This document shows positions 497 through 16,132 of a stretch of DNA of 29,078 bases, one piece after another. A model generated the notes under the pieces. The model was not told where the DNA came from. It ran no database searches and worked only from the letters and a program-made list of their open reading frames with translations. This DNA is from a virus. Taxonomy: Duplodnaviria; Caudoviricetes. Each line of letters opens with the position of its first letter. Position 1 is the stretch's first letter. The position numbers were made by a program, and so were the translations under genes. The stretch lies in IMG/VR virus record IMGVR_UViG_3300032820_000075, positions 1 to 29,078 of that record. One strand, given 5' to 3'.

Positions 497-591
497 AGAC
501 GTTTGTGCCTCGCGATAAGCCGAATTACCTGTGCCCTGTCTTGATCGTTCATCGCCGCCAGGTCGTCGCGCGTAATTCCGAACGCGTTCAT
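325..591 (-). CDS. small Cys-rich putative zinc-finger protein, paralog of 84-311
   Basis: ATG at 591 overlaps the upstream stop (ATGA); MNAFGITRDD...GICERCKRHD...CRRCALGYLDRC. Confidence 0.75.
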   Translation of the reverse strand: MNAFGITRDDLAAMNDQDRAQVIRLIARHKRLVARAIEFGICERCKRHDTTVDERYSFGVYAGIVCRRCALGYLDRCGLRPEGQGARF

Positions 592-1460
592 CGCGTCACC
601 ATGTACGCCTTCTCGATCACGTCGCCGCCCTGCTGCCCCTTCATGTGCGGGGCGATCCAGATCACGCGGTGCGCCTTGCGACTGGGATACCACTGGGCGC
701 GATGATGCCCCGACACAATCCATCGGCGACGATACGCCCGACGCTGCCCGTCGTCCTCACTCGCGTCGGCGTTGGGTTCGCCCGTCGCCAGGCGTCGCAG
801 ACGCACAACGCGGATCTGTTGCTCTTTGTATGCGGCGAACTCTTTGCCGCGTCGCCACGCCCTCGGCAGCGTGCAGTCGTCGGTGTCGGTGTAGTGTGAG
901 TTGATCAGCGAAAGGATCGCGAGCGCCCATCGAACCGTACTGCGATCCCTGGCTCGGATGTCATCGGGAAACGTCTGCCCGTATCTGATGTGGACATCAT
1001 GCGCGATCGGCCAGGCATTATCAGGGCGTTCCATATGAACGACAACAGCGACGCCGTCATCCTGCCCGAGTAACTGGAGTCCGACCGCCTCGGCCTGCTC
1101 TGCGCTGCTGCCGTGCTGCCGTAGCTCGGTCTGAAACTCAGCCTCGAAGGCGAGATACATCGACCGAAACGGCAACAGGTCCGAGTCGATAACGTGCCTC
1201 GGCATCGGTGCGTCTGCCGCAAGGTTCGTCAGGTCGTGCGACAACGCGAACGTCTCGGCCGCTAGGATGCTCGACAAAAGATAGCCGCGCTCGCTGTCGC
1301 CGTAGGGTCGGTTGTCCAGGTGCACGAGCTTCCGCGCCGATGCCATCGCGACGGCAATGGTTCGTTGCTCCGCGATCGCCTTCCAAGGTTGATCGACGAA
1401 GTACTCGCCCCTGGCTCGACGCAAGGCGATCAACTGCCGCACTAGTGGATCGGCGCTCAC
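588..1460 (-). CDS. conserved phage hypothetical protein with C-terminal RWxVxGHxRxQW...WIxPHxKG motif
   Basis: GTG at 1460 is coupled to the upstream TGA (GTGA). The C-terminal RRWIVSGHHRAQWYPSRKAHRVIWIAPHMKG motif is one I recognise from phage hypothetical proteins. Confidence 0.8.
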   Translation of the reverse strand: MSADPLVRQLIALRRARGEYFVDQPWKAIAEQRTIAVAMASARKLVHLDNRPYGDSERGYLLSSILAAETFALSHDLTNLAADAPMPRHVIDSDLLPFRSMYLAFEAEFQTELRQHGSSAEQAEAVGLQLLGQDDGVAVVVHMERPDNAWPIAHDVHIRYGQTFPDDIRARDRSTVRWALAILSLINSHYTDTDDCTLPRAWRRGKEFAAYKEQQIRVVRLRRLATGEPNADASEDDGQRRAYRRRWIVSGHHRAQWYPSRKAHRVIWIAPHMKGQQGGDVIEKAYMVTR

Positions 1461-1687
1461 GTCCTCGAAGACTCGCCGCCGCGCGGCCTCACCGACGAGC
1501 GGCCCCGTGTAGGTGCAGCGCGTGACGTCTGCCCGGCGTCGGCCAGCAAGGGCGCAGAGCGCACGCCAGGCGGTCGTCGCCGCATGTCCGGCTGCGGTTG
1601 CTCGCCCCACCAGCAGACGGGGCAGGCGAAGTAGGTGCGCCCGTTGTCGAGATACCGATCGCACGGTCCCAGCGCGCAGCATGTCAA
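1457..1687 (-). CDS. small Cys-rich hypothetical protein
   Basis: TTGA and GTGA overlaps at both ends; CC...C...CPVC. Confidence 0.6.
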   Translation of the reverse strand: MTCCALGPCDRYLDNGRTYFACPVCWWGEQPQPDMRRRPPGVRSAPLLADAGQTSRAAPTRGRSSVRPRGGESSRT

Positions 1688-2221: not shown

Positions 2222-2724
2222 CAGCTCACGCGGGGCGGTGTCGTCGGCAGCGGAACGATCAACCGCCGTTGCAGCGGTTCGCCGCCACCGTTCGGCGGCT
2301 TCGTGATCGCCTGGTCGTGCGTCGCCAGAATGAGCGACTCGATCCGCTGCACCGCGCCGGGCAGGTCGGTAAACTGCCGCTTGAAATCTTCGAGCAGCAC
2401 GCGGATCTCGGCGAGGTCGGCGTCGACTTTATCCGACGAGGTCAGCATTGCCTCGACGCGCGCATCGGCCCGCGCTTGCTTCAACGTGCGCGCGGCGTCG
2501 CGCTTGGCCTGCACCTCGGCGCGGGCGGCGAGCTTCGTGCGCCACCGTTCGGCCTCGGCCTCGACGTCGGCGATCGTCGGGCGGATCTGATTGCGCCCAT
2601 ACTTACCGCCGGGCACCGACGGGAAGCGCCCGGCCTCGGCCCAGGTGCGGATCGTGGTCGGCGTGACGCCGATCATCTCGGCGGCTTGCTTGCTGTCAAT
2701 ACGTAGAAGCGATCGATCGGTCAT
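2221..2724 (-). CDS. MerR/HTH_17-type DNA-binding protein with coiled-coil C-terminus
   Basis: SKQAAEMIGVTPTTIRTWAEAGRFPS winged HTH; ATG at 2724 overlaps the HNH stop. Confidence 0.75.
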   Translation of the reverse strand: MTDRSLLRIDSKQAAEMIGVTPTTIRTWAEAGRFPSVPGGKYGRNQIRPTIADVEAEAERWRTKLAARAEVQAKRDAARTLKQARADARVEAMLTSSDKVDADLAEIRVLLEDFKRQFTDLPGAVQRIESLILATHDQAITKPPNGGGEPLQRRLIVPLPTTPPRVS

Positions 2725-3110
2725 GCGGTGTTCTCCCTCTGGAAGCGGCTCGGGCGGCGAGCCTTGGTTTCGGCGAGCGTTTTGCGCGAGTGGCACGGCT
2801 TGCAGAGCGGCTGCCAGTTGTCGCGCGTCCAGAACCGATCGAAGTCGCCATCATGCGGCACGACATGATCCAGTTCGGTCGCGCGCACTTCCCGGCCCGC
2901 TGTCAGGCACGTCGCGCAGAAAGGGTGCTTCCGTAGGAACCCGGCGCGCGCTTTGCGCCAGGCGGTCGAGTACATGCGCTGCGTCGGGCGTTTCGGCTTG
3001 AGCCGGGCGACGACCTGGCCGCGCGCCTTGATGCACTCCGCGCAGCGCCAGGTGCCGTAGACCAGGACGCGACGACAGATCCGGCACGGGCGCGGTAGCG
3101 GGTCAGCCAT
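2721..3110 (-). CDS. HNH endonuclease (HK97 gp74-like terminase-associated type)
   Basis: YSTAWRKARAGFLRKHPFCATC...ATELDHVVPHDGDFDRFWTRDNWQPLCKPCHSRKT. Confidence 0.93.
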   Translation of the reverse strand: MADPLPRPCRICRRVLVYGTWRCAECIKARGQVVARLKPKRPTQRMYSTAWRKARAGFLRKHPFCATCLTAGREVRATELDHVVPHDGDFDRFWTRDNWQPLCKPCHSRKTLAETKARRPSRFQRENTA

Positions 3111-3660
3111 CGCAGCCCCGCAGGTGCTCGACGAGCGCCCGCACTTCGGCGACGTCGAGCGTCAAACTGTAGGCCGCCTTGACGCGCAGCCAGCGGCGAC
3201 CGTAGTGGCACCCGTCGACCGTCGGCCACCAGGTCGCCGGATCGCGGTCGCCCTTCGAGCGGTTGACCGAGGCCGAGCTGAGATCAAGGTTCAGCCGGTC
3301 GAGCGCGAAGCCGCGCCGCATCACCGTCGGCCAGGCGCTCGCGCCGGAGCGGTGCGCCTCGGCCAGCGGCACGATGTGGTCGACGTCTATCTGCCCGGCG
3401 TCGGTGAGCGGTGCGCCCGTGTACGGGTCGACCCACGCGCCGCCGACGACACGGCAGTCGCGCGTCGTGGCAAACGTCACCGGCTCGGCGCTCGCGGCAA
3501 TCAACAGCTCGGCGCGCAGGTTTTGACAGTCGCGATCCGTGTCCGGCCAGCCGACGAAGTAGTCGGCCCGGTCGTAGCCGGTCGGCTCAGGCGCGATCAT
3601 TCGCACCCCACCGACGACGACGAGCGCCGACACCGCCGCGCCGATCGCCGTGCGCCGCAT
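3103..3660 (-). CDS. DUF1524 (GmrSD C-terminal-like) HNH nuclease with N-terminal signal/membrane anchor
   Basis: WVDPYTG...IDVDHIVPLAEAHRSGA.W...NL...SVNRSKGDRDPATWWP...C.Y...W..VK..Y.L. The N-terminus MRRTAIGAAVSALVVVGG is basic then hydrophobic. Confidence 0.88.
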   Translation of the reverse strand: MRRTAIGAAVSALVVVGGVRMIAPEPTGYDRADYFVGWPDTDRDCQNLRAELLIAASAEPVTFATTRDCRVVGGAWVDPYTGAPLTDAGQIDVDHIVPLAEAHRSGASAWPTVMRRGFALDRLNLDLSSASVNRSKGDRDPATWWPTVDGCHYGRRWLRVKAAYSLTLDVAEVRALVEHLRGCDG

Positions 3661-3833
3661 CACATACCGCCCGGCCACGGTCGACGCCTGGCGCGCGCGA
3701 GCGTTTCATGGGTGACGCGCATTTCGAGCCGCGCCCGTTCCTCGATCGGCAACCGCGCGCGCCACCGATACCAGATCCACAACGCGCGCACGCGTCCGAG
3801 AACCGCCGACACCGGCCAGACTTCGATCGTCAT
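3660..3833 (-). CDS. 57-aa hypothetical protein (not in ORF track)
   Basis: MTIEVWPVSAVLGRVRALWIWYRWRARLPIEERARLEMRVTHETLARARRRPWPGGM; fills the operon gap with TGATG coupling to the next gene. Confidence 0.6.
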   Translation of the reverse strand: MTIEVWPVSAVLGRVRALWIWYRWRARLPIEERARLEMRVTHETLARARRRPWPGGM

Positions 3834-4146: not shown

Positions 4147-4467
4147 TCATTCCTCGTCGCCGCCCGGCGGCTCGCCGTGCAGGTCGATCCAGTCCGACCA
4201 GCGCACCACGACCAGCGCGTCGCGTCGTGGTCGCCGGGGCCGGTTTAACACCAGCACGCCGATCTGGTGGCGGCGTTCCGACACACGCCGAACCCCGTCG
4301 AGCCAGTCGAACAGATATTTCGGGATCACCTTCCGCACTTTGAGCTGATACCCGAATAGCCCCGACGTGAAGTCAGCGCCGTCGCGTTCGCCCGTCACCG
4401 GAATCCGTTGTGTACCGACGTCGCGGGCGTGCGCCCGTTCGGCGGCTTTCCAGCTCGCGTTCGTCAT
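4147..4467 (-). CDS. putative Holliday-junction resolvase, PD-(D/E)xK fold
   Basis: WKAAERAHA...RIPVTG...GAD......YQLKVR...ALVVVRWSDW; ATGA coupling; position after the replication genes. Confidence 0.7.
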   Translation of the reverse strand: MTNASWKAAERAHARDVGTQRIPVTGERDGADFTSGLFGYQLKVRKVIPKYLFDWLDGVRRVSERRHQIGVLVLNRPRRPRRDALVVVRWSDWIDLHGEPPGGDEE

Positions 4468-5081
4468 CGCCGCCCCCGCGATTGCGCGTTGCTGGTTTGT
4501 CGAATGGCCGCCCGTGCGCGGCGGGCCGCGATCGTCTCGTTCGTGTCGACACAGGCGCACCGCTCGACGTAGTCGTGCTCGTAGTCGCTGCCGAGTGGCG
4601 CGCAGGCAAACCGCCCGCAGCGCGTGGCCGCCGTGCACATGCGCGGACGCCAGCCGGAGTCGTCGCACACGTCGCACGATGGCGGCACCGGGATCGCAAT
4701 GCGCCCGGCCTCGATGGTATCGGCGAGCTTCGCCCACCCGCGCGCCCGGAGCTGCGCGACGCAGGCGGCTTTCGCGAGCTGCACGCGGGCCACCTGGCCG
4801 GGCGTCGCGTTCGGCATCTGCGCGACCAGGCGCGCGGGCGGCGCGTGCTTCGAGGCGACCGCCTCGGCAGCGAGCGCCCACTCGGAGACGGTCGGCATAT
4901 ACCGCCCGGTGCGTTGCAACTGCGAGGCGGCGTCGACAATCGCCGCGACCGGCAGATCGGCCAACGCCTCGTAGTAGATCTGTCGCTGGTCGGCTCCGCC
5001 GTCACGCGAGGCGGGCACGCGAAACGCGAGCGCCAGGCCGTCGTAGGCGTGCGCGAACGCCGGGGCATCGGTCGTCGTCAC
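4464..5081 (-). CDS. putative helicase loader/inhibitor (G39P-like N-terminus) with C-terminal zinc finger
   Basis: YYEALADLPVAAIVDAASQLQRTGRYMPTVSEW; C-terminal CDVCDDSGW...ERCAC; GTG at 5081 coupled to the upstream TGA. Confidence 0.7.
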   Translation of the reverse strand: MTTTDAPAFAHAYDGLALAFRVPASRDGGADQRQIYYEALADLPVAAIVDAASQLQRTGRYMPTVSEWALAAEAVASKHAPPARLVAQMPNATPGQVARVQLAKAACVAQLRARGWAKLADTIEAGRIAIPVPPSCDVCDDSGWRPRMCTAATRCGRFACAPLGSDYEHDYVERCACVDTNETIAARRARAAIRQTSNAQSRGRR

Positions 5082-5419
5082 TTGAGCCGCTCCAGGAATT
5101 GCGCGCTCGCCGCCGCGAAGGTGTCCGGCGCAGGCGCGTCGCCGAGGTACTGGTTGATCCGATTGCCGCCCGCGAACACCTCGAACGGGTGCCGCCGTTT
5201 CGTCAGGTAGGGATCGTCGTCGGCGACATACCGGGCCGCCGCCGCCGCCACCTCGTCGCGCGTGAGTCCGAATGCGATCAGCCCCTTCGCCACTTTGCCC
5301 AGCCTCGGCCCGAACCCGAGATACGGGCGGCCATACCGGACGCGCCACGCCTGATCGAACGCCGCGAAGGCATCCGGCACCGTCAAGGCAGGGTTCGGCC
5401 GTTCGGCACGTTCTGGCAT
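5078..5419 (-). CDS. replication-initiator C-terminal-domain-like protein
   Basis: FDQAWRVRYGRPY...ARYVADDDPYLTKRRHPFEVF...INQY resembles the C-terminal domains of phage replisome organisers. AAAGG RBS; directly upstream of the loader-like gene. Confidence 0.55.
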   Translation of the reverse strand: MPERAERPNPALTVPDAFAAFDQAWRVRYGRPYLGFGPRLGKVAKGLIAFGLTRDEVAAAAARYVADDDPYLTKRRHPFEVFAGGNRINQYLGDAPAPDTFAAASAQFLERLK

Positions 5420-5441
5420 TCTTGCGCCTTTCGTACACGGT

Positions 5442-5652
5442 ACGACTTAGGCCCACACCGGCAAATCGTCGCGGGTTTGCCGTTGATCTCTCGCCTATGC
5501 TGCGCGGCCTGGCGGTCATAGTCCCGCCGTGGTGCTCGCTTCGTCGCCCGACCACGTCGGCCCCTGGGTGTCAGGTGATACCGCACGCCGTCGCACCGAG
5601 GCCAGGGTGTCGCGGATCAAACGCGACAGCCGGGATCGCACCGGCAAGTCGT
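5442..5652. ncRNA. candidate structured RNA or ssDNA element (multi-way junction)
   Basis: Intergenic. Helices: 5442-5448/5646-5652, 5449-5453/5506-5510, 5459-5465/5476-5482, 5511-5515/5524-5528, 5529-5533/5551-5555, 5562-5567/5602-5607, 5608-5614/5622-5628, 5629-5633/5641-5645. Confidence 0.55.
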
Positions 5653-5659
5653 CAACCCT

Positions 5660-5869
5660 TTACTTGGCCCCACCATTGCCGCTCGCAGATCTGCCGCGCC
5701 GTGTGGTCGGCGCGCTGCTCGCGGTCGCTTTTTGTATCCCGCCCGACCGTCGGCGGCGTTGCGCGTCGCGGTTCTTACACCGCCGCGAGCAATACTTCTG
5801 CGCGGCCGTTCTCGGCGTCATGATCCACACGCCGCACGCCGCGCACCGAATCGCATCAGACTCGAACAC
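5660..5869 (-). CDS. small CGNR-like zinc-finger protein
   Basis: CAACG...QKYCSRRCKNRDAQRRRR. Confidence 0.75.
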   Translation of the reverse strand: MFESDAIRCAACGVWIMTPRTAAQKYCSRRCKNRDAQRRRRSGGIQKATASSAPTTRRGRSASGNGGAK

Positions 5870-5878
5870 CTGATGCCC

Positions 5879-6649
5879 TCAGAACACGATCTCTTGTCGC
5901 CACTTCCAGAGCCGCAGGATCGCGTCGCACGCGGGCCATAATTCCTCAAGGCTCGGCACCGCCGCGACTTCGACGTCGGGATCGCCGACGACCTTCGGCA
6001 ACCGGATCACGACGGCCCCATCGACCGCCCCGTGCCCCATCTCGGCGAGCGCGACCTGATAAAAGGCCGACTGTAGGAACGCTTCCTCGCGATAAATCCG
6101 CTTGCCGGTTTTGAAGTCGATCAGGAGTCGCTGCCCGGCCACGGTCGCGACGAGATCGAGCGTGCCCGCGTACTGGTGCGTGGTCGAATACACGACCTGC
6201 TCGACCAGTTCGGGTTTGATCGTGTCGCCTGCCCAGTCCTCGAAGCGACTGACGGCCCAGCGCGCCGGATCGCTGACGTCCGGCTCGGGGCCGAGCGTCT
6301 GCCCGAGTCTGATCCGCAGCCGGTGTTCGATCAGCCCGTGCGCCTCGCTGCCGATGTTGCCCGCGCTCTTGAGTTGCTGCGTGTGCGCCTTCGGGCCGAG
6401 TTGCTTCGACAGCGTGCTCGCGAACTTGGTGCCGGTGATCGTGCTCTGGTGCGCGCGCAGCCCGTCGTAGAGCTGCCCGGCAACGCCGACCACGTAGTCG
6501 CGCTCGACCTTCGCGGCCCACGGCACGAGCGCCGGTTTGCTGAGCAACCCGAGCATCGTCGTCACGCCGACATAAAACTCGTTCTCGATCTCGTACTGCC
6601 GCCCGGCTTTTGTCTGCCGACGGTTTGCGGTTGTGACGGTCGGCGTCAT
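5879..6649 (-). CDS. PD-(D/E)xK exonuclease (RecB/Cas4-like phage recombination nuclease)
   Basis: VGVTTML..LSKPALVPW, GSEAHGLIE, VEQVVYS....YAGTLDL, IDFKTG, LQSAFY; ATG at 6649 with ATGA overlap. Confidence 0.9.
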   Translation of the reverse strand: MTPTVTTANRRQTKAGRQYEIENEFYVGVTTMLGLLSKPALVPWAAKVERDYVVGVAGQLYDGLRAHQSTITGTKFASTLSKQLGPKAHTQQLKSAGNIGSEAHGLIEHRLRIRLGQTLGPEPDVSDPARWAVSRFEDWAGDTIKPELVEQVVYSTTHQYAGTLDLVATVAGQRLLIDFKTGKRIYREEAFLQSAFYQVALAEMGHGAVDGAVVIRLPKVVGDPDVEVAAVPSLEELWPACDAILRLWKWRQEIVF

Positions 6650-6864
6650 GCCTGCGCCTCGTTCACTAAATTCAGATCGCCGCGCCGGAGCAGGATGGTA
6701 TCGACGCAGCCCTCGGTCGGGCACGTCCCGATCGCGGTGACGTAGCCGACGGGTCGCCAGTTCTGCGAACGCCCGATGCCCTCTAGCTCGGTGCCCGCCT
6801 TGACCGTGAGCGGCTCGCCGCAGCTGACACAGTGCGACGGCTGGTAGGCGTAGGTCGTCGGCAT
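6646..6864 (-). CDS. small zinc-ribbon protein
   Basis: CVSCG...CPTEGC; TAATG and ATGA coupling. Confidence 0.7.
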   Translation of the reverse strand: MPTTYAYQPSHCVSCGEPLTVKAGTELEGIGRSQNWRPVGYVTAIGTCPTEGCVDTILLRRGDLNLVNEAQA

Positions 6865-7304
6865 TAGAACGGCACCGCGTCGACAGGCGGCGTGATGTCT
6901 GGCGGCGGTGTCGTGGTCGGCGCACCCGGCGGGAACACGCCCTCGACGTTCGCCCACACGTCGCCGTCGGTCTTGATCGCGTGCTTGATCTCAACCTGGC
7001 ACGTTTTGCCCACGAGCTGCATGAGGTCGATCCCGTCGCGTTCTTCCTCGGGCGAGACGGGCACGCCGCGCCACGAGTCGAGCGTCTTGCGGAGCATTGC
7101 CCGCGCGTGTAGCGATCGCGTGTAGCGGCGGCGCACGACGAACAACCGCTCGCCGCCGTTCAACTGCCACGAGATCGAGATCATTGCCTTGGTGCCGTAG
7201 GCCGTCTCGACCTGGCCGAGATCTTCGACGTCCAGGCAGACGGCCTCGTGCCGTCCCTCGGGCGCTTTTTCACTAGTGGACACGTTCACTACTAACCTCG
7301 TCAT
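6864..7304 (-). CDS. phage ssDNA-binding-like protein (NGO0469-like family) with acidic ...DAVPF tail
   Basis: APEGRHEAVC.DV.DLG...YG, YTRSLH.RA.LRK.L.SWRG, DL.QLVGK.CQV.I.H, WANV; the C-terminal D-x-x-PF tail is SSB-like. Confidence 0.75.
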   Translation of the reverse strand: MTRLVVNVSTSEKAPEGRHEAVCLDVEDLGQVETAYGTKAMISISWQLNGGERLFVVRRRYTRSLHARAMLRKTLDSWRGVPVSPEEERDGIDLMQLVGKTCQVEIKHAIKTDGDVWANVEGVFPPGAPTTTPPPDITPPVDAVPF

Positions 7305-7503
7305 GTGGCGAACCTCGTAGCGCCGGGCGGGCGGCGCAGACTGTGCATTCGTACGACGGCGGCGGCGACTCGAACCGGGTGACGGTGATCGGCCCAGAGC
7401 CGAAAATTGACACCGAGGCCAGGACGGTCTGATAGCCGATCCAGCAATCAGCGCAAACCAGATCGGCGGGCGAGTTTGAGTGCGCGACCAGGTGCCACGC
7501 CAT
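7273..7503 (-). CDS. small zinc-binding hypothetical protein
   Basis: CADC...CTVC; TGATG coupling to the upstream gene. Confidence 0.6.
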   Translation of the reverse strand: MAWHLVAHSNSPADLVCADCWIGYQTVLASVSIFGSGPITVTRFESPPPSYECTVCAARPALRGSPHDEVSSERVH

Positions 7504-7709
7504 CAGCGATCCCTCGGCGGTCGCGGCGTCGTGTCGGTCGCCGCGCGTTTGACGATGATCCGGTCGAGGTCGCGCGGCAAGTACAACGGCGTGCGACCAA
7601 AGCGCACGCGCGGCACGCGCAGCCGGGAGACGCGACTGCGAAAGCTCGCGAGCGTGCCAGGGAATCGGACGTAGTCCATTGCTTCGGCTTCGGAGAGGTA
7701 GCGCGGCAT
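7503..7709 (-). CDS. excisionase-like HTH_17 DNA-binding protein
   Basis: RYLSEAEAMDYV...LRVPRVRFGRTPLYLPRDLDRII. Confidence 0.75.
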   Translation of the reverse strand: MPRYLSEAEAMDYVRFPGTLASFRSRVSRLRVPRVRFGRTPLYLPRDLDRIIVKRAATDTTPRPPRDR

Positions 7710-7710
7710 C

Positions 7711-8001
7711 TTAGGCGGTGCGCTTTCGGTCGGCGAGGGCGATCGGGCGGGCTGGTCGCGTCGGTCGCTGCCTGACGTCGGGGTGTTGCAGCCAGGCGAT
7801 CACGTCCTCGCGCAGCCAGCGATACCACTGGCCCGAGACGCGCGGCATCGGCGGCGGGAACCGGCCCGAGCCTTGATCGGCGTCGCGCTGGATCGTCGAC
7901 GGGTGTACGTCAAAAAGCGCCGCCAGGTCGCCCCGTCGAATGATGGGCGGCAAGTCTCGGGCGCGGCTGATCAGGCTTTGCTGTCGTTTCGGGCGGGGCA
8001 T
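7711..8001 (-). CDS. AlpA/Xis-like winged HTH regulator (Cro position)
   Basis: IIRRGDLAALFDVHPSTIQRD...GRFPPP...RWLREDVIAWL; first gene divergent from the repressor. Confidence 0.82.
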   Translation of the reverse strand: MPRPKRQQSLISRARDLPPIIRRGDLAALFDVHPSTIQRDADQGSGRFPPPMPRVSGQWYRWLREDVIAWLQHPDVRQRPTRPARPIALADRKRTA

Positions 8002-8008
8002 AAGGGGC

Positions 8009-8037
8009 ACGATATGGGCGCAGCAATATCTCGTCAA
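8009..8037 (-). promoter_or_regulatory. sigma70-type early (lytic) promoter, probably leaderless
   Basis: TTGACG (8037-8032) - 17 nt - TATCGT (8014-8009) - 7 nt - ATG (8001); no Shine-Dalgarno sequence. Confidence 0.7.
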
Positions 8038-8098
8038 GCAATAAAGGCGTTATCGCACCACAACGGTGCAAACTGACGCACGAAGGGGCATTTTTCTC

Positions 8099-8128
8099 TT
8101 GCGTGCGTGTAATTCTGCGCCATACAAT
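8099..8128 (+). promoter_or_regulatory. sigma70-type repressor promoter, near-leaderless
   Basis: TTGCGT (8099-8104) - 18 nt - TACAAT (8123-8128) - 9 nt - ATG (8138); no Shine-Dalgarno sequence. Confidence 0.6.
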
Positions 8129-8137
8129 CGCCCGCCT

Positions 8138-8449
8138 ATGCCGATCCACCTCGACGACATTCGCTGGCACGTCGGCCACGTACTGCGACGACTGCGGCAA
8201 GCGCACCAGCTCAGCCAGTCCGCCCTGGCCGAGGCGTCAGGCGTCGCGCAGTCGAAGATCCAGCGACTCGAAGATCGTGGCGTCGGCAGCCTGGACACCG
8301 TGACGACGTTGGCCGAGGTACTCGGCACGACCGTCGGCGAGGCGACGAGTTACGCCGAGCGATTGAACGGTGCCCGCTCAGGCGACCAGGACGCAGTCGA
8401 TACGCTGGCCGCCCTCATTCGGAAGGAAACCGGACCAAGGAAATCATGA
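8138..8449 (+). CDS. XRE-family HTH repressor (CI-like, no peptidase domain)
   Basis: VGHVLRRLRQAHQLSQSALAEASGVAQSKIQRLEDRG.GSLDTVTTLAEVLG; divergent from the early operon. Confidence 0.9.
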   Translation: MPIHLDDIRWHVGHVLRRLRQAHQLSQSALAEASGVAQSKIQRLEDRGVGSLDTVTTLAEVLGTTVGEATSYAERLNGARSGDQDAVDTLAALIRKETGPRKS

Positions 8450-14035: not shown

Positions 14036-16132
14036 TTAGGGTTCAGGCTCCGGCGCGGGTGCCGGTTCCGGTTCTGGGTCTGGTTCTGGTTCTGGGTCTG
14101 GTTCTGGGTCTGGTTCTGGTTTCAGCGGTTCGATAATGGGATAGCCTTCATCGTCTGTCCACAGCGTGTGGCTGCTTTTCATGTGGTCATCCTGCCGACA
14201 GGCTACGACCATCCATGACACCGTGTCAGTGCAGTCCGACTCTTCGCAGTCGATGGTCAAGGTGCTGCCCGTCACGCTCCCGCGCACATGCTTCCACCCG
14301 GTTTCGTTTGACGTGTAGCACTGCTCATCGCGGCAGAGCAAAATCCATGTCCCGCTGGACATCCCTGCGGCCTCGTCCAGATCCACCGTCGCTTGCCCGT
14401 CCACCAGTGTGGCGGTGCCACGGTAAATCAGATCCGCTTTCGGTCCCTCTATGAACGAATGAATGAGATGGTGCGTGTCCGTCATGGACGGCAGCGGATG
14501 GTCGATCTTGAATGTCCCCGATACCTTGGACAACGTTCCCGCCACGTTCACGGCGTCGATGAAGTTGACGGTATTTGAGGCTCCGAACACTTTGATACAC
14601 ACATTGTCATGCACGTTATTAAACAGATTCATGTCGGCAGTCGAGTCTGTACTGCCCTGACCTTTCATACCCCACGACCACTTGGTGACGTTGTCCACCA
14701 TGAAATTAATCCCGTTATCGGTATTGTTGTTGTTGGTCGTTCCCGTGTGGGAGCCGAGCGTCAGGAATGCCGATCCCCCAGTTGCGCCAGCTGCCCCAGA
14801 GGTGCCGGGAGATGTATCAACCTTGATCCCTTGACCGCCCCCAGCAGATACCGTGAGCGGTTGGGTGATCTCCGTTGTGCCGATGCCGACGTACCCCGTA
14901 TCACCTTCGATCCGCATTTTGATTGAATTGTTATAGGCGAACGACACGTCAGTTCCGTTCGCATACATCTCCCATGCGTCCGCTGTGGAATCATGCAGCA
15001 CCAATCCCGCGTGGGTGCCGTCCTCAATCTCAAGGATTCTAGCCACATCTGACGGTGACGTGGGGGTGGAAGTCCCGATCCCAACGTTGGCGTTAAATTT
15101 CACAACACCAGTACCACGCACTATGCGGAACGACTCCGTCGCGGTGTCGTTCACCAGTCGCTGGAACACAGGGTCGCCGGTATCAGCCAATCCCACTTGT
15201 AACCCGTACGCCGCTGCACCTGATGCCCGCTGCGTGATACGGAAAATATCGAGCACGTTGTCGCCGCCAGTCACGTCAAGCGCAACATCAGGATCGGTTA
15301 CTCCGAGGCCAACATTCCCGGCATTATCAATCCGCATCCGTTCCGCCGCGTTCGTGGTAAACGACATAAAGTTGGAGCTGTGGTTGTAGATGAGACGCCC
15401 GATATCGCTGTCGCCACTGTCACCGAAATCGATTATTCCGGCCCCACCTGTCCCGCTGTAGATACCCACGGCGCAGTTGTCGTTGTGCTCCACGATGAGG
15501 CGCGTATTGGTATCCCCCGGTGTCGCGCCTGACGCGGTGTTGGTGATGGTGGTTATTCCGTCAACATCCAAGGTGCCATCTAGCCGCGTCGCCCCATCGT
15601 CTACAAACAGGGCGTAATTGGCACTCGCCTCGCCAGCTGCGCCAGTGATCCAGAGCGATGCTGAGGTGCCAGCGCTTCCACCGCCCCCGACGATGATCGT
15701 AGGCTCGTCGATCTTGACTTGGTAGACCGTCGTGACGGCTTGGCTTGCTTGCGTCGTGATCGCATTCCCGAAAATCGTTCCGCCCAGGGATGACGTATCG
15801 CCAGCAACGCCGGTCAGCGTTCCGGCGTACCACTGTTTCGCCGCGTTCGACGCCGCGCCGCCAGATGTGAAATTCCCGGCAAAATAGTTTGCGATGTAAT
15901 CGAGCGGAGACGCGCCGACCGACAGGCTGTTCGTGCTGGCGTTATACGTCAACGCGCTATTTCTCGCCAGTTGCGTGCCGCTGCTCGCGAAGATCAGCTC
16001 GTTCGCACCCTGTGACGCGATCGCGATCGAGCCGGTACGCAACGCGGCACTATTGGCAACGACTGAGGCGTTCCACTCTCCGGCCGTAACCATATCCCCG
16101 GTTGTCAGGGTCGAAGCGGCGACGTATGCCAT
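14036..16132 (-). CDS. tail fibre / receptor-binding protein with C-terminal chaperone-like domain
   Basis: Gly/Thr/Ser-rich with repeated ERMRI...GNVG(I/L)G(T/V)..P units; C-terminal FKIDHP...HSFIEGPKADLIYRG domain. Confidence 0.88.
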   Translation of the reverse strand: MAYVAASTLTTGDMVTAGEWNASVVANSAALRTGSIAIASQGANELIFASSGTQLARNSALTYNASTNSLSVGASPLDYIANYFAGNFTSGGAASNAAKQWYAGTLTGVAGDTSSLGGTIFGNAITTQASQAVTTVYQVKIDEPTIIVGGGGSAGTSASLWITGAAGEASANYALFVDDGATRLDGTLDVDGITTITNTASGATPGDTNTRLIVEHNDNCAVGIYSGTGGAGIIDFGDSGDSDIGRLIYNHSSNFMSFTTNAAERMRIDNAGNVGLGVTDPDVALDVTGGDNVLDIFRITQRASGAAAYGLQVGLADTGDPVFQRLVNDTATESFRIVRGTGVVKFNANVGIGTSTPTSPSDVARILEIEDGTHAGLVLHDSTADAWEMYANGTDVSFAYNNSIKMRIEGDTGYVGIGTTEITQPLTVSAGGGQGIKVDTSPGTSGAAGATGGSAFLTLGSHTGTTNNNNTDNGINFMVDNVTKWSWGMKGQGSTDSTADMNLFNNVHDNVCIKVFGASNTVNFIDAVNVAGTLSKVSGTFKIDHPLPSMTDTHHLIHSFIEGPKADLIYRGTATLVDGQATVDLDEAAGMSSGTWILLCRDEQCYTSNETGWKHVRGSVTGSTLTIDCEESDCTDTVSWMVVACRQDDHMKSSHTLWTDDEGYPIIEPLKPEPDPEPDPEPEPDPEPEPAPAPEPEP
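14040..14122. repeat. 6-bp coding microsatellite (GGTTCT/GGGTCT) encoding a PEPD/PEPE tail
   Basis: Translation PEPDPEPDPEPEPDPEPEPAPAPEPEP at the fibre C-terminus. Confidence 0.9.

Follow-up and report, generated by a model that had tools for sequence, protein, structure and literature searches.

A conserved, structured non-coding element beside a putative truncated initiator gene in the replication module of a tailed phage

The early module and its putative truncated initiator

The window, by which we mean the whole 29,078-nucleotide stretch of DNA analysed here, is part of the genome of a tailed phage, with genes for the portal, prohead protease, capsid, connectors, tail and tape measure all on its minus strand. 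At least half of the region's words are contained in 20 of the 24 sequencing runs listed, and all 20 are labelled marine or seawater; five runs are possible sources of the DNA. Several excisionase-like HTH genes (2221-2796, 7503-7709 and 7711-8037, minus strand) and a divergent repressor-like gene (8066-8449, plus strand) suggest that the phage is temperate; no integrase was found among the ORFs scanned in the window.

Read along the minus strand, the early module consists of a possible SSB-like gene (6864-7304; weak PHROG match only), a PD-(D/E)XK exonuclease (5879-6649; phrog_298 at E 1.9e-32, PF12705), a small zinc-finger ORF with the pattern CxxC...CxxxC (5660-5869; weak PHROG matches), a gap, an ORF of 113 aa (5078-5419) and an ORF of 205 aa (4464-5081). 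The element that is the subject of this report fills the gap and reaches into the 3' tail of the zinc-finger ORF.

Which protein is encoded by the gene just downstream? The 113-aa product has no Pfam or PHROG match. Its structure model (pLDDT 90) is all helical and resembles, in BFVD, the C-terminal domains of phage replication proteins, with a best E of 1.5e-3 and all E values above 1e-3. A further lead, to PF09524, comes from the Atlas, where this family ranks 30th at 0.93 and shares 144 of 256 features. Fold searches against the PDB returned nothing clear: the best Z was 5.1, and G39P (4.9) and two DnaD-like chains (4.2 and 3.8) lay amid unrelated helical domains.

The 58 relatives of this protein at E <= 0.001 comprise seven of up to 125 aa, 37 of 126-190 aa and 14 that are longer. 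Among the 14 are one spurious 2783-aa repeat protein and one natural fusion (P0010); most of the remaining 12 (216-358 aa) have the shared domain in their C-terminal half, one of them with an N-terminal DUF1376 and one (P0034) with a zinc ribbon. The 37 relatives of intermediate length (in P0011-P0059) have a short N-terminus, helical by eye, in place of the DNA-binding domain, and many of them bear a C-terminal CxHxPxC motif. Stand-alone initiator domains of 112-130 aa are present in other phages. In the window, the stop codon upstream of the 113-aa ORF lies only nine codons beyond its start, and the N-terminal DNA-binding part is absent. The N-termini of the 12 longer relatives were also sought in the window, itself a partial genome, and no separate homologue was found; the one exception was a match from a relative whose first 110 residues include the shared domain. 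What the gene seems to encode is the C-terminal domain of an initiator resembling SPP1 G38P, the DNA-binding half being absent.

The 205-aa neighbour, which has C-terminal cysteine motifs, is a likely helicase loader of the G39P/P-like kind. A Pfam search with it gave no match, and the Atlas gave a weak lead to G39P_N (0.87 with an 11% share). P0010 (323 aa, from a cluster of 25) is a natural fusion of the stand-alone initiator domain to a protein like this 205-aa neighbour. At another locus (L302), a relative of the 205-aa protein comes after a longer gene that by eye resembles a full initiator, and no such element is present there. The labels of initiator and loader are leads, not HMM matches.

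In the phage SPP1, G38P belongs to PF09524 and G39P is its loader; the origin oriL, made up of iterons and an AT-rich element, is embedded in gene 38 and is bound by G38P (PMC5737612). The module described here is similar in that a probable initiator-type C-terminal domain precedes a likely loader, both lying downstream of recombination genes, and in that the element takes up the position expected for the 5' part of the initiator gene. It differs from SPP1 in that this position is occupied by a structured element that is GC-rich (65% G+C, with no AT-rich unwinding stretch) and has no iterons, and in that the 113-aa protein is without the N-terminal part. No iteron or other repeat array was found in the three loci examined, and there is no GATC enrichment. 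A promoter and terminator scan detected neither a sigma-70 promoter of the element's own nor a terminator-like site.

Extent, fold and strand of the element

A search with the 113-aa protein gave a 96% variant (L001-L003), and an alignment of four sequences led to two diverged metagenome loci, L013 (51%) and L014 (62%). Gene order is the same in the window, L013 and L014, including the position of the zinc-finger ORF, and L014 ends within the 113-aa gene. Four full sequences of the element are available, one pair being 96% identical. At the nucleotide level, the element of the window shares 71% identity with L013 and 58% with L014; the corresponding values for the exonuclease are 59% and 58%.

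A first-pass annotation of the window had drawn attention to this gap, as an element of about 210 nt adjoining a replication gene. The interval is indeed structured, but alignments with L001/L011, L013 and L014, together with pair counts, give the whole conserved element a larger extent, 5433-5748 on the minus strand or about 315 nt. Conservation begins about 100 nt upstream of the interval first marked, within the tail of the zinc-finger ORF. Between the element and the start codon of the 113-aa gene lies a spacer of 13-42 nt that is variable in length and sequence. The element is present in single copy: a covariance model scores just one site of the window strongly, and the next best has an E of 0.22.

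Several motifs of the minus strand are invariant: GGGATAC, GGGTTGACGACTTG, TGC(G)A, GGGCGAC..GAGCA, CCGCG, GYGTGG, AAGTCG and TGTAC. The 14-mer GGGUUGACGACUUG (5645-5658) is identical in all four sequences and bears the 5' strand of helix P1; UGUAC (5433-5437), equally present in all four, lies 11 nt after the start of AAGUC. A purine-rich motif, GGCGRGA(TAC or GATC)AA, occurs in two copies per element (by eye in the window), one in the loop of H0 and the other within the internal loop of P6: 5723-5748 and 5483-5500 on the minus strand of the window, and 1874-1888 and 2114-2128 in L013. In L014 both copies are upstream (2546-2557 and 2604-2615). This pair is possibly a repeated protein-binding site.

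Thirteen helices with 66 pairs were set by hand, anchored on the invariant motifs. At the 5' end is a hairpin, H0 (5723-5748), with the invariant GGGAUAC in its loop; four of its five pairs show a double change in the unedited alignment, and its loop motif, CGGGATACAAAG, is present twice in L014. The H1 domain (5685-5718) consists of a 4-bp stem and a 7-bp hairpin with an ACCAYN loop, and L014 retains 11 of its 11 pairs, six of them changed on both sides. The 3' tail of the zinc-finger ORF overlaps H0 and H1 in the window; in L014 this ORF terminates before the element, and H1 is outside any such ORF.

A long-range helix, a:b (5671-5665 with 5604-5598), is absent from the first list of helices and is continued by GGG/CCC (5658-5656 with 5607-5605). 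In L014, a:b has three double changes, a change from G.U to G-C and one broken pair, and in L013 an A-U pair has become G.U. Helix P1, CGACUU/AAGUCG (5651-5646 with 5448-5443), is the closing helix proposed originally, and all six of its pairs are invariant. Because the 5' strand of P1 lies inside a:b while its partner is downstream, the two helices cross; they are predicted to form either a pseudoknot or two alternative folds. The pseudoknot is a prediction because the invariance of P1 leaves it without covariation for or against.

P2, a 5-bp stem with a loop beginning UGCGA, and P3 together occupy 5608-5645 and keep all their pairs. In the hand alignment, L013 and L014 show one and two double changes in P2, and four and three in P3. 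P1, P2 and P3 abut with zero linkers in all four sequences. By consensus, the P2 loop is T-loop-like. Next is the P4 arm (5531-5597), with GGUGC/GCACC, an inner helix, a variable tip and a conserved unpaired stretch that starts GGGCGAC (5549-5536); P4 has a double change from G-C to A-U in L013, and the inner helix has changes from G-C to A-U and from A-U to G.U in L014.

The hairpin P5 (5511-5528), which was named at the outset as GGCGG/CCGCC, exists in four stem versions, each fully paired, and shows a double change even in the 96% variant, where it is the sole pair altered. P6, CCGCGC/GUGUGG with two G.U pairs (5453-5507), encloses P7 (5482-5459), the CGGCAAA/TTTGCCG of the first list. One G.U pair of P6 is G-C in L014 and one terminal pair is broken in L013; P7 has two double changes in each of these loci. 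At 2869-2936 of L014, a long inserted arm with a purine-only loop extends P7, and there is an extra hairpin within P6, so this 3' domain tolerates large insertions. Short contigs known only from read mapping retain, by eye, the 3' strand of H1b (CTGC), and one of them has a P2 stem with an inserted hairpin resembling that of L013.

How well is this fold supported? In L013, 54 of the 66 pairs are unchanged, nine double and two single changes keep the pairing, and one pair is broken; in L014, 39 are unchanged, 21 double and three single changes are kept, and three pairs are broken. Changed cells still pair in 35 of 39 cases, against 17.3 expected, and in 20 of 24, against 10.3 expected, when three hairpins of variable length are left out; since all sequences were in view when the helices were picked, the counts are optimistic. 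In an unedited MAFFT alignment, which misaligns P2, P3, P6 and P7, a double change is found in 17 of 68 pairs against 5.9 +/- 2.1 in shuffles (0 of 500 reaching it), in a control that ignores relatedness. Sliding the partners on the same alignment gives 0-6 pairs with a double change. RNAalifold, given this alignment, recovers unaided H1b, H1c, a:b, GGG/CCC, P5 and, in P4, GGUGC/GCACC.

Other measures do not single out the element. Blind enumeration of helices without a slide kept 4 of 271 (two with double changes), and six coding controls from the exonuclease kept 0-6 (0-1 with double changes); the slid counts were noisy on both sides. The folding z of the whole minus-strand element ranges from -1.1 to +0.4, and single-sequence ensembles favour other folds, most conserved helices being of low probability. 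Taken together, we consider it very probable that the structure is real and conserved.

The first-pass annotation had left the strand open, and it is most likely the minus strand, the coding strand of the operon. Read on this strand, the alignment has ten G.U cells and no A.C cells, and of seven one-sided changes five involve G.U, two are A.G mismatches and none is A.C. The element is likely to be an RNA of the transcribed minus strand. Could it instead encode a protein? All minus-strand frames are interrupted by stops in each of the four sequences, and the sole open plus-strand frame of the window is closed in L013 and L014. Spacings between anchors shift the frame among sequences, and the variants have 1-nt indels. 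A protein-coding gene was rejected, there being no reading frame open and preserved across the four sequences, and the comparison supports a non-coding element under selection for secondary structure.

The fold drawn for the window alone has fared less well than the idea of a structured, non-coding element. As described, each of the eight helices named there is perfectly paired within 5442-5652, and the junction has seven linkers, six of them of zero nucleotides. As a conserved fold, the seven-way junction is nevertheless rejected, since three of the eight helices fail in relatives. The closing helix (as 6 bp), GCCGG/CCGGC, TGTCGCG/CGCGACA, GGCGG/CCGCC and CGGCAAA/TTTGCCG are kept. CCCTGG/CCAGGG has no double change, three of six pairs broken and a pairing probability of 0.00-0.01; GTGGT/ACCAC has no double change and three of five pairs broken; and, in the 96% variant, the middle pair of AGGCC/GGCCT is broken. 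Their replacements are a:b, GGUGC/GCACC with the unpaired GGGCGAC stretch, and CCGCGC/GUGUGG. The original fold lies 7-9 kcal/mol above the RNA minimum. RNA folding of that interval does not stand out from shuffles, with z of -1.57 on the plus and -0.94 on the minus strand (14 and 34 of 200 shuffles as good); for DNA the values are -0.76 and -2.99, the latter equalled in 1 of 200 shuffles and being the best of four tests. A competing TCGTAC/GTACGA hairpin, proposed at first as a possible switch near the ribosome-binding site, is present in the sequence, but by eye its form is not kept in L013 or L014 and the switch is unsupported.

Distribution and comparison with known systems

No match to the window was found among the 4227 models of Rfam 15 at the gathering score; weak matches at E 2.4 and 3.8 were far below it, and eight loci including L013 and L014 gave none at E <= 1. 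Among plasmid records, none covers more than 18% of the element. It is absent from 77 other viral and 29 cellular-genome loci with relatives of the exonuclease, and from 29 related phage records, which indicates that it is rare and travels with the cassette of zinc-finger and truncated initiator genes. A search of 411 loci with nhmmer returned known loci only, and the covariance model, run on the window with 99 of 413 loci and on 30 records, returned known sites only (next best E 0.014-0.07). Pattern scans picked out 21 viral and 27 genome stretches, and then 120 out of about 550 and 119 out of about 160 viral ones; every new hit was judged to be chance, and no homologue outside the four types came to light. 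A profile of the initiator domain, searched without a positive control, gave none in 29 records, genome scans with this domain gave nothing real, and GenBank phages gave no protein match and one DNA match, due to chance. The single metatranscriptome considered has no coverage of L013 and carries no weight on expression.

Two further loci, L190 (minus strand, around 480-520) and L287, share GGGTTGACGACTTG and a downstream AAGTCG. They represent an unrelated phage intergenic region with possible pairing and no covariance-model match; they were dropped on account of their other context and lack of an Rfam match, and the likeness is probably chance.

A search of the literature found no description of the element. 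The three contig identifiers and a 13-nt motif were not found in the part of the supplements of Fremin et al. 2023 (PMC10690425) that was covered; the candidates of that study are 29-151 nt, and the element may overlap one of them. We rate the element as a structured-RNA family new to Rfam, in a variant SPP1-like replication module.

Among known systems, the element may be compared with three motifs from plasmid replication regions, ARRPOF, GEBRO and PAGEV, which are 223-349 nt long and for which the choice between RNA and single-stranded DNA is undecided; the plasmid with ARRPOF can replicate in the absence of its rep gene (Weinberg et al. 2017, PMC5737381). The element resembles these motifs in being structured and non-coding, in its length and in its replication-gene context, and it differs from them in lying in a tailed-phage operon beside a truncated initiator, with no Rfam match. 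The three plasmid motifs themselves are, we presume, represented in Rfam.

Persistent transcripts can also open an origin: in the ColE1 RNA II preprimer and the R-loop origins of T4, a folded or persistent transcript does so without a sequence-specific initiator. The mechanism proposed below for the element would be analogous. Differences are that the element has no sequence or Rfam match to them and that its module keeps an initiator C-terminal domain and a loader; an R-loop or primer is for the element a proposal.

Possible roles of the element

What might such an element do? We tentatively favour, at somewhat less than even confidence, a predicted origin element that replaces both the missing DNA-binding half of the adjacent initiator and its iteron origin. 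This role is the most likely because the element occupies the place of the initiator gene's lost 5' half. Gene context favours it as well, the position of the element between the zinc-finger gene and the 113-aa gene being fixed, and ARRPOF, GEBRO and PAGEV, of similar size and from plasmid replication regions, provide an analogous precedent. Several points weigh against it. The element is GC-rich with no AT-rich stretch for unwinding, and an element on the sense strand just 5' of a start codon also fits a cis-regulator. The DNA-binding half may be lost without such an element, since 37 of the 58 relatives have another short N-terminus and stand-alone domains of 112-130 aa exist; and an origin-binding gene may lie elsewhere, as the window is a partial genome.

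If the element is an origin, the early operon would be transcribed through it, and the folded transcript might remain at its template, keeping the duplex open as an R-loop or as a primer precursor. Next, the stand-alone initiator domain would be recruited, either by the RNA in its folded form or by the displaced minus strand, which is identical in sequence, with the zinc-finger protein and the GGGAUAC loop perhaps as intermediaries; this domain would in turn bring the loader and the host helicase. The strongest version, that a pseudoknotted RNA has replaced the initiator's DNA-binding domain and iterons, marks and opens the origin and is read by the stand-alone domain, which loads the helicase, is rather doubtful. 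Were it true, it would amount to RNA-directed origin recognition coupled to the remnant of a protein initiator, which would be categorically new if shown.

Large covarying RNAs of bacteria and phages that lack a known function are rare and have often led to new biochemistry. Here the context is compact: four small genes surround the element, and one absent protein domain hints at what the RNA would replace. As an origin element it would offer a minimal replicon for asking how ARRPOF-like motifs might work, and a case in which RNA takes over origin recognition from a protein domain.

A possible, if improbable, alternative is a cis-regulatory RNA of the early operon that controls the genes for the initiator domain and the loader at the level of translation, antitermination or processing, possibly through a switch between a:b and P1. 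Its sense orientation, its end 13-42 nt 5' of the start codon and the presence of the same downstream gene in all syntenic loci would suit such a regulator, and P1 and a:b do cross, nested folds with either being similar in energy. However, the stretch separating the element from the start codon varies in both length and sequence, the hairpin first noted near the ribosome-binding site is not conserved, and no terminator-like site is present. Moreover, about 315 nt with many invariant unpaired bases exceeds what most translational operators need, which counts against this reading.

Alternatively, the functional form might be DNA rather than RNA: a folded minus strand serving as an assembly site for a primase or primosome, or as a single-strand origin. 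Motifs such as ARRPOF may act as single-stranded DNA (Weinberg et al., PMC5737381). The location in a replication module agrees with this, and the sole fold above chance is that of minus-strand DNA over the interval first marked, although this z of -2.99 is the best of four tests. G.U (in DNA, G.T) wobbles have been accepted repeatedly, and crossing helices and T-loop-like loops are features more often met in RNA. We consider a DNA element unlikely.

Unlikely to the same degree is a phage RNA acting in trans, or an RNP scaffold, of the GOLLD and ROOL kind, co-transcribed with the replication genes and able, perhaps, to bind the zinc-finger protein. Both ROOL and GOLLD are regarded as RNAs that phages use, and ROOL averages 581 nt (PMC5737381). 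Like them, the element has a multi-junction fold, here with invariant unpaired motifs and a predicted pseudoknot; its absence from the 77 viral and 29 cellular exonuclease-relative loci also suits a cassette with the zinc-finger gene. Unlike them, it is about half the size of ROOL, has no Rfam match and has no tRNA gene in the window, where ARAGORN found none; no cloverleaf or tRNA-like domain was found for the element either. In addition, no sigma-70 promoter or terminator of its own was found, and in the loci seen it is always immediately 5' of the truncated initiator. Even as a regulator or a scaffold, it would still be an RNA family absent from Rfam with its secondary structure worked out.

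A self-splicing intron or self-cleaving ribozyme, for example one joining the zinc finger to the initiator domain or cutting the transcript, is very unlikely. GACUU/AAGUC followed by two hairpins resembles P7 of group I introns, where such a helix likewise crosses another and its 5' strand precedes two hairpins, and a zinc ribbon fused to the initiator domain does exist in P0034. Compared with the group I consensus, however, the alignment shows no base bulged from P1 at the guanosine site, lacks a P4-P6 domain in the stretch from the a strand to P1 and does not conserve J8/7; there is no Rfam match, each flanking gene has its own stop or start, and the DNA contigs have no joints. Equally improbable is that the helices arose by chance, either in GC-rich spacer DNA or in what decay has left of the initiator gene's 5' half, for although RNA folding z is near zero and blind enumeration did not set the element apart from coding controls, double changes far exceed shuffled and slid controls, RNAalifold agrees blind, and motifs are invariant despite 58% overall identity.

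Elsewhere in the window, two neighbouring ORFs at the left end (84-723 and 588-1682, minus strand) have a near-identical zinc-binding segment, CERCKRHDTTVD...CRRC, which suggests a tandem duplication. Two adjacent HNH-type genes lie at 2721-3110 and 3103-3678 (minus strand), the second with a hydrophobic N-terminus. An ORF of 698 aa 3' of the tail genes (14036-16132, minus strand), for which Pfam and PHROG searches gave no match, has a G+C content of 56-59% against about 66%, and is possibly a recently swapped receptor-binding gene.
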